28,840 nt of DNA from a virus (taxonomy: Duplodnaviria > Heunggongvirae > Uroviricota > Caudoviricetes), in the IMG/VR virus record IMGVR_UViG_2609459848_000003; one strand, written 5' to 3'. Every line of letters starts with the position of its first letter. Positions within the stretch are counted from its first letter, which is position 1. Shown piece after piece: positions 11,999 through 23,770 of this stretch. The notes under the pieces were generated by a model. The model searched no databases and had not been told where the DNA came from. It was given only the letters and a program-made list of their open reading frames with translations. The translations under genes were made by a program, and so were the position numbers.

Positions 11999-12189
11999 GT
12001 ATTTTTAAGTCGCGAATGCTATCTTTTCGCATCATATTGACCTTTTAATCGTTCAGGCTTATAGTTTCGCCGTCGTAGCAAATTCTGCGACCGGGTTTAG
12101 CAGCCTGAATGATTGTGCGGACAGCCGCAGATATCCGATATTGCGGTATTTTTGTGTCCGTAAAACCGCGTTACGCCCAAATTATGGTG

Positions 12190-12265
12190 GGGCGTGATGG
12201 GGAGGCTTCGGCCTGCTGGTTTCACAATCGCCAGTCTGCTAACCCCGTCACGTCCTGCCACCTGT
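12190..12265 (+). ncRNA. c4: c4-like antisense repressor RNA (structured, tRNA-like)
   Basis: Nested hairpins: GAUGGGG...CCCCGUC outer stem, AGGC-UUCG-GCCU tetraloop hairpin, CUGG-uuucacaaucg-CCAG hairpin. Loop tcacaatc (12222-12229) is exactly complementary to gattgtga (12295-12302) at the icd ribosome-binding site. Ends are approximate. Confidence 0.45.
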
Positions 12266-14558: not shown

Positions 14559-15404
14559 ATGCTGGCTAAAGTCACTTTCCTGAGCTGTATAACGATGAGC
14601 GATTTTACTTTTTCTGGCTATGAATTGGCCTGCTTTGTAACACACTCCGGTCTATCCCGTAGCGCCGGGCATATCCTGTCGCAATGTGCAAATCTCGCGG
14701 CAACAACCAGTGAATATTTCATTCACAAGCCTCACCGCCTGATCGCGGCAGAAACTGGTTATAGCCAATCAACCGTCGTTCGTGCATTCCGTGAAGCTGT
14801 AAACAAAGGAATCCTGTCTGTAGAGATTGTTATCGGCGATCACCGTGAACGCCGCGCTAACCTGTACCGGTTTACACCATCCTTTTTGGCCTTCGCACAA
14901 CAAGCTAAAAACGCGCTGACTGAAAGCAAATTAAAGATCTCTTCAGCCGCAACCAAGGTTAAAGCTGTTCTCGCTAAGACATTGGCTTTATTTGATTTTT
15001 TAACCACAGCCCCATATCAAAATGATACCCCCTCCCCCTGTCAGGATGACGTGGCAATAAAGAATAAGAAGTCACAAGTTAAAAAAACAAAAAGATCAGT
15101 TTCCGGCGGTGCCGGAACGACCAGACTCAAAAAATTGACTTCATGGATCGCTGAGGCAAAAGCAAAGGCTGACAATCTGCGGTTATCCAAAAAACGCACT
15201 CAAAAACATGAGTTCAAGCAGAAAGTAGAGGCGGCTGCGCGGAAATATGCTTACCTGAAGAACAAGCGTTCGCCTGATATTGGCGGGATATCAAACTTCG
15301 ATAACCTACCGCATTGCATGACGGTAAACGAAGCTCTTAATGCGGTTTTAGCCAAAAATAAAGATAACGAACAATGGGGTATACCGGCGGGATTCAGAGG
15401 GTGA
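14559..15404 (+). CDS. repL: Lytic replication initiator RepL (281 aa)
   Basis: Position directly after kilA and the 281-aa length match P1 RepL as I recall it; the lytic origin is expected inside this gene. Confidence 0.7.
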   Translation: MLAKVTFLSCITMSDFTFSGYELACFVTHSGLSRSAGHILSQCANLAATTSEYFIHKPHRLIAAETGYSQSTVVRAFREAVNKGILSVEIVIGDHRERRANLYRFTPSFLAFAQQAKNALTESKLKISSAATKVKAVLAKTLALFDFLTTAPYQNDTPSPCQDDVAIKNKKSQVKKTKRSVSGGAGTTRLKKLTSWIAEAKAKADNLRLSKKRTQKHEFKQKVEAAARKYAYLKNKRSPDIGGISNFDNLPHCMTVNEALNAVLAKNKDNEQWGIPAGFRG

Positions 15405-15639
15405 TAGATTGCTCTAATCTGGAGTCACCTGGCGTTTTCAGTATGGATTTTCTTTGGCGCGGTCTGGCCATTAGGGATCATGTTTGCTGCAACATTTCTT
15501 CTGATGTGGATATTCACCCTTCCCGGTGATTTCTATAGAAAAAAAGCCAGACATTGATACAATCGTTGCGGGTGCTTGAGGCTATCTGCTTCAGGCATTA
15601 CCCGAAAAGCAGATAGAAGAAAGCCCCAGATAACATTAA

Positions 15640-15720
15640 GCGTCCTGCAAGACGCTTAACATTAATCTGAGGCAATATCTATGCTTAGCATACGTAGATT
15701 AGCCTCTTACCGACCAAAAG
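15640..15720 (-). ncRNA. sok: Sok-like antisense RNA (approximate position)
   Basis: Inferred from the hok/mok architecture; the leader GGGTGCTTGAGGCT...AGCCTCTTACCG...CAAGGAGAAG resembles the R1 hok mRNA leader from memory. Exact ends not determined. Confidence 0.3.
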
Positions 15721-15887
15721 GTCAAGGAGAAGCAGGCTATGAAGCAGCAAAAAGCGATGTTAATCGCTCTGATCGTCATCTGTTTAACCGTCATTGCGAC
15801 GGCACTGGTAACGAGGAAAGACCTCTGCGAGGTACGAATCCGAACCAGCCAGACGGAGGTCGCTGTCTTCACAGCCTACGAATCTGA
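15681..15887 (+). CDS. mok: Mok (modulator of killing) reading frame overlapping hok
   Basis: 68-aa ORF starting 58 nt upstream of hok and overlapping it in another frame, as in the hok/mok/sok arrangement. Confidence 0.55.
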   Translation: MLSIRRLASYRPKGQGEAGYEAAKSDVNRSDRHLFNRHCDGTGNEERPLRGTNPNQPDGGRCLHSLRI

Positions 15888-19623: not shown

Positions 19624-21351
19624 TTACTCAGAGTCACCGGCATCAATCGTGTCGCCGCTTATGAAGTTAAGCCCGCCTTTTTTGGCCATTGTCAGCGTTA
19701 CACGAGTGAAGTAATCAGCGCCGTTGCGTGGGTGCATATCGTTGATAGCCGAACCCCACAGCGTGGTACGGTTGACCAGCGCCGGAGTGGTCGGATGCTG
19801 GAACGGGATGGCCGGGACAGCATCACCAGTCACGAAGCCTGCTTTACCCGGATTTTCATCACGGACGTAGCACAGCACATCCATCGAGCTGAACTGAATG
19901 TTCTCTGTCGTTAAGTTCTTACAAATACCAGCAGGTACTTCGTACACTTTCACGTTACCGAACAGGGTACCGATGTAGTGAACATACGGAGTCTGGATAT
20001 AGTCTTCGGCTGGCTGGAAGAAATCCTTCGGCAACTGTTTGAAGAAAGATGCTGCATCAGCACCAGCAAACATCCCCATCGCACCAGAAGATTTAACGCG
20101 CTCAATAATGTCGCGATATACAGTCTGGAATTTGCCACGAATGATGGTTGCCCATACATCAAAGGACTGGTTAACCGGCAGAGCGATGTCAAAGGTGTCG
20201 TTCGCAAGAGTACGCCAGATCATGATGCGAAGACGCAGCATATCCTGTTCATGAGACAGGTATTCCTTCAGGGTGCGGAACTGTAGGGAACCCAGGTCCA
20301 GACCAAATTCACGCTGTGCTTCATACGCCGCCTGTACCGTGTGCTCAGCCGCGATAACGAACTGGCTTGGGAACAGGGTGTATTTCTTCATTTCGTGGTT
20401 GATCAGCGGGATCAGCTCAGGAGCGGCTTCAATATTGATTTCCGTCTCAATTGCGATCTCAGTGCCTTTATCCGGCGCTTTGGAGAACGACAGGGCAATC
20501 TGACCAATGTTGTAGTTCAGAGAGCAGGTAACAGTGATTTGCTCACCAGCAGCATTAGTAAACGAGTGAAGTAGGCTGCCGGAACCGTTATCAACAACAG
20601 ACTTAATACGGTTAACGTAGATATTAGTGCGACCTTTTCGGATTGGTACATTCTGGCCTTCGAAGTCTTCCATCTTGAAGGTTGCGGTTTTGCTGGTGCC
20701 ATCGGAGCTTGCCACCAGCACATAGCGGCGGCGTAACTGGCTGTACACACCGACGGATTGCATGTCCAGAACATCACCAGCAGCATAAGAACCAAAAGAG
20801 GAACCTGCCACGTTAAAGACTTCATAGATGTCGGACTGGTCACGCGTAACCGGAATGAAGGTACACGCATCAGCGGTAGCTGCCCCCAACTGAACAGGCA
20901 GGATCATCGCGAGGAATAAAGGCAGACGCATAACACCGTCAGAAACGCTCATCATCTCTGCTGCGACGGATTCCAGCATCGCTTTATTAGTGGCATCCAT
21001 GCTATTGCGGGTGGACTCAATCAGGCAGTTTTCCAGCGTCTGGTGGCAGGAGGCCAGAATTTCCGGACGCGGCATAGATTTATGTGCTGCGGCGTAGTCA
21101 GCCAGTGCACTTGCCCACGCTGTAGCGATTTGAGCGGTGGCATTATCAGAGATACCCGCAAAAACCGGGTCTTTACGTGCAGCTTCAAGGATAGATGCGG
21201 CACGCGCGGCATCATCTTTAATGAATTGGTTATCAGTACCGAACTGCGCAGTGCTTGCCCAGCCAAGCACAGCTTTAGAGCGTTTTGCGATATCTGCAAT
21301 ACGATTCTGGTATTCGCGTAAGTTACTCAATTTACTCTTCCTTAAACACAA
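19624..21351 (-). CDS. Major capsid protein (575 aa as tracked; likely start is TTG at 21330)
   Basis: Large late ORF immediately downstream of parS/parB, as gene 23 is in P1. The tracked start is TTG; an in-frame TTG at 21330 preceded by SD AAGGAAG is the more likely initiation codon (MSNLREYQ...). Confidence 0.5.
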   Translation of the reverse strand: MCLRKSKLSNLREYQNRIADIAKRSKAVLGWASTAQFGTDNQFIKDDAARAASILEAARKDPVFAGISDNATAQIATAWASALADYAAAHKSMPRPEILASCHQTLENCLIESTRNSMDATNKAMLESVAAEMMSVSDGVMRLPLFLAMILPVQLGAATADACTFIPVTRDQSDIYEVFNVAGSSFGSYAAGDVLDMQSVGVYSQLRRRYVLVASSDGTSKTATFKMEDFEGQNVPIRKGRTNIYVNRIKSVVDNGSGSLLHSFTNAAGEQITVTCSLNYNIGQIALSFSKAPDKGTEIAIETEINIEAAPELIPLINHEMKKYTLFPSQFVIAAEHTVQAAYEAQREFGLDLGSLQFRTLKEYLSHEQDMLRLRIMIWRTLANDTFDIALPVNQSFDVWATIIRGKFQTVYRDIIERVKSSGAMGMFAGADAASFFKQLPKDFFQPAEDYIQTPYVHYIGTLFGNVKVYEVPAGICKNLTTENIQFSSMDVLCYVRDENPGKAGFVTGDAVPAIPFQHPTTPALVNRTTLWGSAINDMHPRNGADYFTRVTLTMAKKGGLNFISGDTIDAGDSE

Positions 21352-21459
21352 GGCACTTGTGTGAATCCCTTTTCGGAAGAGATTTTATTGAAAGTCACTT
21401 GTTGACTTTCTCGCTAAAAGTAATTTTTTAAATTTTTTGTGCGGGGGAGGGGGGCAAGT

Positions 21460-21545
21460 AAAACAGGCGTGAAACCGTGGGAATTTCAGCCTGAAATTTT
21501 TCATGAATATCTATATATATCATATATTTATACATGAAATAGACG
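21460..21545. promoter_or_regulatory. parS: parS-like partition site: box-A-type heptamers flanking an AT-rich IHF-like core
   Basis: GTGAAAC (21469-21475), ATTTCAG (21483-21489), TGAAATT (21492-21498) and TGAAAT (21535-21540) resemble P1 box A (ATTTCAC) in both orientations around atatctatatatatcatatattta, which fits the IHF consensus WATCAANNNNTTR with one mismatch; immediately downstream of parB. Confidence 0.55.
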
Positions 21546-21596
21546 CGGGACATTTTAGACAGGGGAGGGGGCTAAAGCCGCCTCCCACCAGCGGGA

Positions 21597-22562
21597 TTAT
21601 TCCCCAGCAGACATTTTCCCAATGATTTTTTTTATTGCTTCGTCAATTTCAGTTTGCACTTCAGACGGGAGTCTGGAGAACTCGTAGGCGACAACCCGTT
21701 TTTTCGGATCGGACTTCTTTCGGGCATATTGGCGACGGTCAGAGAAGTCTCGCAGCTTCTCAACCACCACAGATTTAACCGGCGCGGGCTTCAGGCTTTT
21801 GCTTTCCGCTTTGAAGATAGCCAGTATCTTCGCTTTATCCTCTTTCGCGCCCTCAGTCTCTGCAATTCGTTCGCGCACCGTATCAACCAGCTCTTCAATC
21901 GGCACGCTTTTAGCGTTAGCATCCTCGGCGATCTGGAGCAGTAACTGGTAATCTGGAAGGGCGAGATCGCTGGCTACGGGGAAGACAGCAATCATCTCAT
22001 CCGGCACCGCGGCAGCCTGGAAAGCTCGCGTCACTTTAGCCTTTGAGATGTTCTCAGCTCGGGCGATCTCTTCTTTGGTCATATTCTTACCGTACATAAC
22101 CTCGAAGCGTTTACCCAGCTCGCGCAGAGTGTGTTCGCGGGCTGTCTGGATATCAATGGCCAGCTGGCGGGCATCCGCCAGGCTGATCTCATCTTTCGTC
22201 ACCAGAATCTCAAATTTCGTTTCATTGAAGATACACGCAGCACGGCGACGCGATCCGTCCAATACCTCAATGCGCTCCCCAACCATACGACCGATAGCCG
22301 GGAAGAACTGTTGCAATTTAATGGTGCGGGAAATATCGCTTACCGACTCAGGGGTGAGCAGAGACTGATCGCGGCCGTTAACTGCCGGGTCAACGAACGT
22401 GCGCGACTCAATCTCACCACTCAGCACGACGGTAAGCAAGAATTTAGCCTGGCGGCCAGATTTTAGGGTAAAGGTTTTGGTGCCTTCACTGCCTTCAAGC
22501 ATGCGAGCAAACTCGGAGCTATTCTTGCCCAGCACTCGTCCACGGGAAACTATTTTTTTCAT
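21597..22562 (-). CDS. parB: Partition protein ParB (321 aa)
   Basis: Family resemblance to P1 ParB from memory (e.g. GRQA, VDGSRRRA, KAKVTRAFQAA, DYQLL); 4-bp overlap with parA. Confidence 0.85.
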   Translation of the reverse strand: MKKIVSRGRVLGKNSSEFARMLEGSEGTKTFTLKSGRQAKFLLTVVLSGEIESRTFVDPAVNGRDQSLLTPESVSDISRTIKLQQFFPAIGRMVGERIEVLDGSRRRAACIFNETKFEILVTKDEISLADARQLAIDIQTAREHTLRELGKRFEVMYGKNMTKEEIARAENISKAKVTRAFQAAAVPDEMIAVFPVASDLALPDYQLLLQIAEDANAKSVPIEELVDTVRERIAETEGAKEDKAKILAIFKAESKSLKPAPVKSVVVEKLRDFSDRRQYARKKSDPKKRVVAYEFSRLPSEVQTEIDEAIKKIIGKMSAGE

Positions 22563-23770
22563 GCCGCCTCACCCCTAACAAACTCAATTCGATCAAACAC
22601 AGCCTTAGTGAAACGCTCGGCCTCGGTTCGTGCCTTCTTCAGCGCCTCTGCACTGCCTGGATACGATTGCGGGTTGGCACTGATTACGGTGTCGAAAGAC
22701 TCGCCGCATCGCTCAAAGCCATCCAGACGAGGCAGAGAAGAGTCCAGAATGTTGCTGGCGTAAACCTCACGCGCAAGGCTGTGTGATGTCTCGTGATCGC
22801 GCTTGCCGGTCATCTTCGACATAAAACCAATGCTGGCGCTCAAACGCGGTTCTACGCCTTCCTCCTCCAGTTGCTCCAGCATTTCTGGCAGACGGGTGAG
22901 ATATTTCAGTGTTGAGTGGAAGTCAACCTGGGCTGGTGGGGTAGGGGTAAGCAGCAAATCGCTGGCCGCCAGACCGTTGAGCAGGAACGGATCCAGGTGT
23001 GGACCGGTATCAATAAAGATAAAGTCATAATCATCCGCAACACGATCAATGATATTGCGTCGAAGGATTTCGTACTGATTTTGTCCGGGAAGATGCTCTT
23101 CAACCAACTCTTTCCATTGGCTGGCAACAAAGCCATCGTCGATAGAGGCTGGAATCACGTCTACGCCAGGAACGATGGTCGGACGAATCACCTCTTTGCG
23201 TAGCGTCTCCGCGTCCAGGTCGTTCAGCATCGCCTGCGCGGCGGTTTCCAGGATGGAACCAATACTGTGAGTATGGTCGAGGAACATTGTGCTGGATGCC
23301 TGAGGGTCAAGGTCAATTACCAGAATGCGCAGATCGTGACGCAGTAAATCCTGATGCACACGCAGAGCGTGCGCCAACGTGACTGTGGAAACCGTTTTGG
23401 ATACGCCACCCTTCAGGTTTACGACAAAAATAACGTAAGGCGATTTGTGAATGTCGCGATATTTGGGGATCTTACGGTGGGCATAGATATCAATGACGTT
23501 CTGGATGGTCAGCGCGTACTGTTCAACGTTACCGACCTGTTTCTTGTTGAACTGGTACCCATCATCTTCCATCTCTTTGATGGCCTGCTCCACAATGCGG
23601 CGGCTCAGCTTCGGCAACTTTGCCACAGCGTTACGAGTGAACGTCTGATAATACTCGGTCTGATTGAACTCTTTGCGCTGATCTTCAATATCCTGACTCA
23701 TGGCCTTAAGTAATGCGCTTGCACGAAGAGCTATGGTGCCGACACCGCCGTAATCGCGTTTCATCATCAT
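22559..23770 (-). CDS. parA: Partition ATPase ParA (type Ia, 403 aa)
   Basis: Deviant Walker A VNLKGGVSKTVSTV; LRILVIDLDPQ; C-terminal PRLDGFERCGESFDTVISANP...AVFDRIEF close to P1 ParA from memory; an N-terminal extension typical of type Ia ParA. Confidence 0.9.
   Translation of the reverse strand: MMMKRDYGGVGTIALRASALLKAMSQDIEDQRKEFNQTEYYQTFTRNAVAKLPKLSRRIVEQAIKEMEDDGYQFNKKQVGNVEQYALTIQNVIDIYAHRKIPKYRDIHKSPYVIFVVNLKGGVSKTVSTVTLAHALRVHQDLLRHDLRILVIDLDPQASSTMFLDHTHSIGSILETAAQAMLNDLDAETLRKEVIRPTIVPGVDVIPASIDDGFVASQWKELVEEHLPGQNQYEILRRNIIDRVADDYDFIFIDTGPHLDPFLLNGLAASDLLLTPTPPAQVDFHSTLKYLTRLPEMLEQLEEEGVEPRLSASIGFMSKMTGKRDHETSHSLAREVYASNILDSSLPRLDGFERCGESFDTVISANPQSYPGSAEALKKARTEAERFTKAVFDRIEFVRGEAA

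Follow-up and report, generated by a model that had tools for sequence, protein, structure and literature searches.

The window, as the term is used here, is the whole stretch of 28,840 nucleotides of viral DNA that we analysed (Caudoviricetes; IMG/VR record IMGVR_UViG_2609459848_000003), and our interest lies in the interval 21352-21596 within it. This interval separates two partition genes from a capsid gene, the minus-strand order being parA, parB, intergenic region and capsid gene; since the partition genes are on the minus strand, sequence downstream of parB has the lower coordinates. The parA gene (22559-23770, minus strand) is a 403-aa open reading frame for a type Ia partition ATPase with an N-terminal helix-turn-helix (HTH). 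It is overlapped by parB (21597-22562, minus strand), a 321-aa open reading frame for a centromere-binding protein of the P7 type. On the far side of the interval lies gene 23 (19624-21330, minus strand), whose product is listed as "gp23, major capsid protein" in the P1 record and as Upf57.5 in the P7 record.

A megablast search with 21200-22700 matched phage P7 (AF503408 and X17529, the latter being the 1989 par sequence of P7) over the full length at 97.9% identity. The match to P1 was limited to 21200-21500, the 300 nt proximal to gene 23, at ~93%. P7 is also the nearest phage over 25 kb, with 98.2% identity across 88%. Most of the 1.5-kb stretch 21200-22700 is held by 235 PLSDB plasmids, nearly all of them from E. 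coli or Salmonella. One GenBank entry named "Escherichia phage P1" (OP279344.1) carries a P7-type par module with 99.6% identity to the same stretch of the window, so the database names P1 and P7 do not predict the partition type.

The two partition proteins follow the same pattern. ParA is identical to P7 ParA at 403 of 403 residues and 58% identical to P1 ParA; PDB entries 3EZ9 and 3EZF match it over its full length, 3EZ9 at 100% identity. Its Pfam matches are PF18607 (HTH_54) and AAA_31 and that of ParB is PF08775, a combination that marks the system as type Ia. ParB agrees with P7 ParB at 319 of 321 residues (99.4%), the two differences being S160N, next to the HTH region, and S212A; the N160 ParB of pSA20030575.2 is 100% identical to that of the window. 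The P1 ParB-DNA structures 1ZX4 and 2NTZ match residues 137-316. Identity to P1 ParB is 43% overall, with the N-terminal half at 46% and the C-terminal half at 39%. The initial annotation of this locus, made from the letters of the window, had called the N-terminal half diverged from P1, which is correct but incomplete, because the C-terminal half has diverged as well. It had also held that C-terminal identity to P1 would speak against a separate partition type; at 39% no such identity is found, and the C-terminal 51 residues (271-321) are 100% those of P7.

The partition site

Directly downstream of parB on the minus strand, parS spans 21469-21551 in the order B1-A1-IHF-A2-A3-B2-A4. We carried the box calls over from the P7 GenBank record by gap-free alignment and checked each motif in the window; the box assignments rest on the GenBank annotation and on the P7 literature. 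On the parB side are box B1 (GTCCCG, 21546-21551, minus strand) and box A1 (ATTTCAT, 21534-21540, minus strand). They are followed by a putative IHF site (21518-21530) that matches the consensus WATCAANNNNTTR on the plus strand at 12 of 13 positions and is annotated in P7 and P1 at the same offset. The other arm consists of box A2 (ATTTCAG, 21491-21497, minus strand), its inverted copy box A3 (ATTTCAG, 21483-21489, plus strand), box B2 (TTCCCA, 21478-21483, minus strand), which is the P7-type discriminator hexamer and reads TCGCCA at that place in P1, and box A4 (GTTTCAC, 21469-21475, minus strand). Boxes A2 and A3 together form a perfect 8-bp inverted repeat, the core at 21498-21533 is 86% A+T, and the P1 and P7 records place all seven parS elements at identical offsets. 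The site is thus built as the initial annotation had described it, with box A heptamers in both orientations (three on the minus strand and one on the plus strand) around an AT-rich, IHF-like core downstream of parB.

The heptamer cluster is not a chance occurrence: three ATTTCAN copies fall within 58 bp, where ~0.29 would be expected per 245 bp at the window's own density (Poisson ~0.003), and the densest 90-bp stretch for this motif in the 28.8-kb window is the parS cluster. The arrangement BA-IHF-AABA is the standard one, with A2-A3-B2 as the minimal site, and box B, B2 above all, discriminates between related ParB proteins and sets incompatibility (PMC10999674). An 18-nt imperfect palindrome (TTTCATGAATATCTATAT / ATATATTTATACATGAAA, 21499-21539) also runs across the IHF core, box A1 included; it occurs in the P7-proper class only and is missing from the sister variants described below.

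The earlier failure to find the P1 box B hexamer was borne out by a systematic search, in which neither TCGCCA nor its relaxed forms occurred on either strand of 21352-21596; the aligned positions read TTCCCA and GTCCCG. With the P1 hexamer missing, the specificity is not that of P1, and to that extent the initial annotation was right to propose a distinct one. It is not a new one, for the P7 GenBank record lists exactly TTCCCA and GTCCCG as its box B hexamers. A parS of new specificity, apart from both P1 and P7 and served by a divergent ParB, would accord with the lack of TCGCCA in the interval, with a ParB just 43% identical to that of P1 and with the two substitutions that separate the interval from P7 parS. 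Those substitutions (21543 and 21509) both lie between annotated boxes, however, in an alignment across parS with 0 indels. The alignment with P1 and P7 parS that the initial annotation had called for gave a gap-free match to P7 with every annotated box identical, next to a ParB that is 99.4% P7 and 100% P7 over its C-terminal 51 residues and a ParA that is 100% P7. We therefore give a new specificity practically no credence; it is effectively refuted by sequence identity. The parS in the window is the already annotated and experimentally characterised parS of P7, whose specificity is already known. For the interval as a whole, we regard it as nearly certain, judging by sequence comparison, that it is the parS belonging to a par module of the P7 type, carried by a phage-plasmid of the P1 family (Punavirus), with the late promoter and leader of gene 23 adjoining. 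The finding is an ordinary one in that both parS and the capsid late promoter are annotated in public records already.

By homology to P1 and P7, the A+T-rich core would be bent by IHF, and the bend would set the left arm (B1-A1) beside the right arm (A2-A3-B2-A4). P7 ParB dimers would contact box A through their helix-turn-helix domain and box B through their C-terminal dimer domain. The P7-type box B sequences (TTCCCA, GTCCCG) would be read by P7-type ParB alone, which would leave the site compatible with plasmids that carry a P1-type par. The resulting ParB-parS complex would then stimulate the type Ia ParA ATPase, so that plasmid copies are positioned over the nucleoid. From the known discrimination between P1 and P7 at box B, the element, being P7-par-type, is expected to be partition-compatible with P1-par plasmids and incompatible with P7-par plasmids. 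The P7-type par module is common among IncY phage-plasmids, and the identification of parS in itself changes little.

To describe the variation among sites of P7 specificity, we searched IMG/VR and GTDB genomes for the core pattern TTTCAGNCTGAAATTCCCACG; together with plasmid loci, this gave 36 usable loci and 25 distinct sequences. Our scan of the genome collection for the parS core returned one E. coli contig only. The search pattern fixed B2, A3 and most of A2, and these could not vary in the 25-variant table; in the plasmid sister variants, which we obtained without this pattern, B2 and A3 are kept as well. All 25 variants retain box A1 and the hairpin between parB and B1 (the proximal hairpin), and B1 is GTCCCG in 22 of them and GCCCCG in the other 3. 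The IHF spacer, A4 (RTTTAAC or TTTTCAC) and the C tract on the far side of the site vary. In summary, the P7-type centromere appears in this table to tolerate change in the IHF spacer, A4 and the distal C tract, but not in A1, in the proximal hairpin or, largely, in B1.

G tracts and the hairpin after parB

Two G-rich tracts lie outside the boxes, at the places where the initial annotation had put them: GGGGGAGGGGGG at 21443-21454 on the side of gene 23 and GGGGAGGGGG at 21562-21571 on the side of parB. The G-tract 10-mer is present in 3 copies in the window against ~0.05 expected under a uniform model. The third copy, C5TC5 at 15028-15038 on the plus strand, reads CCCCCTCCCCC followed by TGTC, as in the parB-proximal copy. 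It lies inside repL (14559-15404), which in P1 contains the lytic origin oriL. Two further observations concern the tracts beside parS: 21435-21453 and 21553-21571 form a 19-nt imperfect direct repeat around the site (79% identity, 118 bp apart), and the distal tract could alternatively pair with the 5' arm of the hairpin after parB (21578-21586).

This hairpin, GGGAGGCGGC-UUUA-GCCCCCUCCC (21563-21586, minus strand), was found as an inverted repeat beginning ~10 nt past the parB stop. It folds at -24.7 kcal/mol, and its 3' arm is the parB-proximal G tract. Among the 25 variants the stem changes only from a C.C mismatch to a one-base U bulge and from C-G to U.G, the last of which pairs on the par mRNA strand only. 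The hairpin is not followed by a U run, and no intrinsic terminator or sigma-70 promoter was called in 21250-21700, so it cannot be called a terminator. We infer that the hairpin serves as an RNA element at the 3' end of the par operon. Alignment with P1 revealed no parB-proximal hairpin there.

The distal tract belongs to a spacer that is first C-rich and then A/T-rich (CCCCCCTCCCCC GCACAAAAAATTTAAAAAATTACTTTT, 21416-21454, minus strand) and corresponds to what the 1985 P1 record K02380 labels a "CT/AT-rich region". Only in the P7-proper class does the tract read C6TC5; sister variants with the same B2 have GTCCCCACTCCCC, GTCCAC-TTCCCC or CGCCTC-CCTCCCC in its place. The distal tract is the local form of a C/T-rich spacer that is also present in P1.

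The initial annotation had seen the two tracts as a paired G5AG5 bracket around the centromere. As a functional pair, they could block the spreading of ParB, form G-quadruplex or i-motif structures that the IHF bend draws together, or provide handles for the exchange of a parS cassette by recombination. The direct repeat around parS, the strong over-representation of the 10-mer with its third copy in repL and the possible pairing of the distal tract with the hairpin 5' arm would all fit such a role. On the other side, the distal tract decays in sister variants that share box B2, P1 has a single C/T-rich tract and no proximal copy, and the hairpin arm fully accounts for the proximal tract. The minimal and the full parS sites of P1, moreover, are not known to include the C/T-rich region. 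A functional pair thus seems very improbable to us, and the bracket falls away as a description of the site. The 25-variant comparison rules out the tracts as a conserved pair; they are real and statistically unusual, but judged from this comparison they neither form a functional pair nor bracket the centromere in a conserved way. More remotely, the three C5TC4-5 copies, two beside parS and one in repL, might be sites for some factor.

When we scanned the whole window against Rfam, nothing was returned in the parS interval, and the only matches elsewhere were C4, c4-a1b1 and sok. The c4-a1b1 targets and the C4 antisense RNA of the immI region lie at 12059-12111 and 12180-12265 (plus strand), and a sok antitoxin RNA of a hok/sok-type module lies at 15570-15744 (plus strand), just downstream of repL; these matches score above the gathering threshold.

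Late promoter and leader of gene 23

The initial annotation had expected the late promoter of the capsid gene in the same interval as the partition site, and a promoter of this kind, LP23 (21382-21400, minus strand), is annotated there as "predicted" in both P7 and P1. It has the form of a -10 hexamer (TAAAAT, 21382-21387) with a 9-bp inverted-repeat -22 box (AAGTGACTT, 21392-21400) and no -35 element. The pattern AAGTNACTT-N4-TANNNT has exactly two perfect matches in the window, LP23 and Ps (2327-2345), and Ps is a P1 promoter whose transcription start was mapped experimentally. The Ps match is on the minus strand upstream of gene R and is an exact copy of the P1 late promoter Ps/LPs, with the -22 box AAGTTACTT and the -10 hexamer TACAAT; the window agrees with P1 at 100% identity in this part. 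Late promoters of P1 are activated by Lpa (PMC8198154), and the predicted LP23 would drive gene 23 in an Lpa-dependent manner.

Two palindromes had been put forward as candidate binding sites of the late activator. Both exist, but they had been misplaced by ~20-28 nt: the first, AAGTCACTTGTTGACTT, lies at 21392-21408 and not at about 21420-21436, and the second, ACACAAGgcaCTTGTGT, lies at 21346-21362 and not at 21366-21382, which puts it partly outside the interval. Only the 9-bp AAGTGACTT within the first palindrome is the annotated LP23 -22 box. This provides the case for the reading in which Lpa binds at both palindromes, since AAGTCACTT (21392-21400) is the annotated -22 box and resembles mapped Ps in form and spacing. 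The remainder of the first palindrome fares worse: two Salmonella plasmids have other sequence in place of its extended left arm (GAAAGTCA) but retain the -22 box and the -10 hexamer. The second palindrome is found 20-36 nt past the -10 hexamer and hence inside the transcript, where motif search and folding give a leader hairpin, ACACAAG-UGC-CUUGUGU (21346-21362, minus strand). It is not conserved in the Salmonella lineage, where 71.9% of cells are paired and three pairs are broken. Being transcribed and not conserved, it is a poor candidate for an activator site, and we hold out very little hope for a reading in which Lpa binds both palindromes.

The leader of gene 23 contains a Shine-Dalgarno sequence, AAGGAAGAG (21335-21343), ahead of a TTG start codon (21328-21330; together 21328-21343, minus strand), as annotated in P1; the translation begins LSNLREYQ. 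Our mechanical open reading frame call had put the start at the TTG at 21351, and the P1 annotation puts it at the TTG at 21330, with the strong Shine-Dalgarno sequence ahead of it. In the Salmonella lineage, gene 23 has a TTG start in the same place.

Between the -10 hexamer of LP23 and the inferred late start lies CUCUUCC (21375-21381, minus strand), a candidate anti-Shine-Dalgarno strand. Folding pairs it over 7 bp with GGAAGAG (21335-21341), enclosing the second palindrome (z = -2.6). The mapped start of Ps lies 9 nt past the last base of its -10 hexamer. By analogy, the LP23 transcript would start at ~21373-21375, past the anti-Shine-Dalgarno strand. In partition-function folding, GGAAGAG has an unpaired probability of 0.00-0.06 per base when the anti-Shine-Dalgarno strand is present; in the longest construct with that strand, its two central A's are free (0.93). 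For RNA that begins at 21375 or 21373, the unpaired probability is 0.44-0.93.

The comparative data for this helix come from a narrow set of sequences. Nearly all of 80 IMG/VR loci are identical in the leader, and one Salmonella lineage is informative (IMG/VR L014 and L037; CP053320 and CP146848). There the pairing strands are GUCCU...AGGAC, in the same register to the -10 hexamer and to the start codon. Four pairs of the Shine-Dalgarno helix change on both sides, against 0-1 in slid controls, in a comparison of five sequences from approximately two lineages. The predicted occlusion of the Shine-Dalgarno sequence is weaker in the Salmonella lineage. Plasmids with a capsid protein ~40-44% identical to that of the window had no LP23-like box; their ribosome binding site is covered by a local hairpin in a different leader, which cannot be aligned with that of the window.

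The stretch between parB and gene 23 yielded no terminator, so transcripts of the par operon could plausibly run on into gene 23. In the model that we derive from the folding, read-through RNA from the prophage-expressed par operon would carry CUCUUCC and have the gene 23 ribosome binding site occluded, and the Lpa-activated late transcript, which would not carry it, would be translated. The leader of gene 23 may thus be a promoter-selective translational gate and the P1-family counterpart of T4 gene e regulation. We put this forward tentatively, as a possible but rather doubtful reading. If it is true, a constitutively transcribed maintenance operon can abut a capsid gene without an intrinsic terminator, and the gate would be a way in which a phage-plasmid shields a structural gene for lytic growth from a neighbouring operon that is expressed in the prophage.

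Relation to known systems

The par region of phage P7 (AF503408, X17529) agrees with the window in gene order, in the layout of box A, box B and IHF site, and in the box sequences, which are identical. The parS (incB) of phage P1 shares the architecture, the offsets and the location between parB and gene 23, and from the LP23 region into gene 23 the identity of P1 and window is ~100%. The two differ in box B (TCGCCA in P1, TTCCCA and GTCCCG in the window) and in the A heptamers, which are ATTTCAC or ATTTCAA in P1 and ATTTCAT, ATTTCAG and GTTTCAC in the window. They also differ between the parB stop and B1, where P1 has only a 4-nt gap and no hairpin, whereas the window has the hairpin.

A sister class of P7 specificity is found on IncY elements (NZ_CP135714, NZ_CP099352 and NZ_CP139341; ~139 PLSDB records) with 82-88% identity over the 245 bp and a ParB that is 98-99% identical. 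It keeps box B2 (TTCCCA), A1, A3, the proximal hairpin and LP23, and also A2 except in NZ_CP139341 (GTTTCAG); B1 is GCCCCG in NZ_CP135714. In this class the IHF spacer is rewritten, A4 has become RTTTAAC and the distal C tract is eroded.

For the leader of gene 23, the system to compare is phage T4, in which genes e, soc, 49 and I-TevI are subject to promoter-dependent occlusion of the ribosome binding site (PMC3014915). In the gene e type, the Shine-Dalgarno sequence is sequestered in a helix whose 5' strand is found within a late promoter or immediately before it, and the same position is predicted for the leader of gene 23. Transcripts of T4 that are initiated upstream are silent and late ones are translatable, as would be the case for gene 23 if the predicted folding holds. 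The two systems differ in their activators, Lpa with sigma-70 polymerase in P1 and P7 and gp55/gp33 in T4, and the start of the gene 23 transcript is one that we infer only from Ps.
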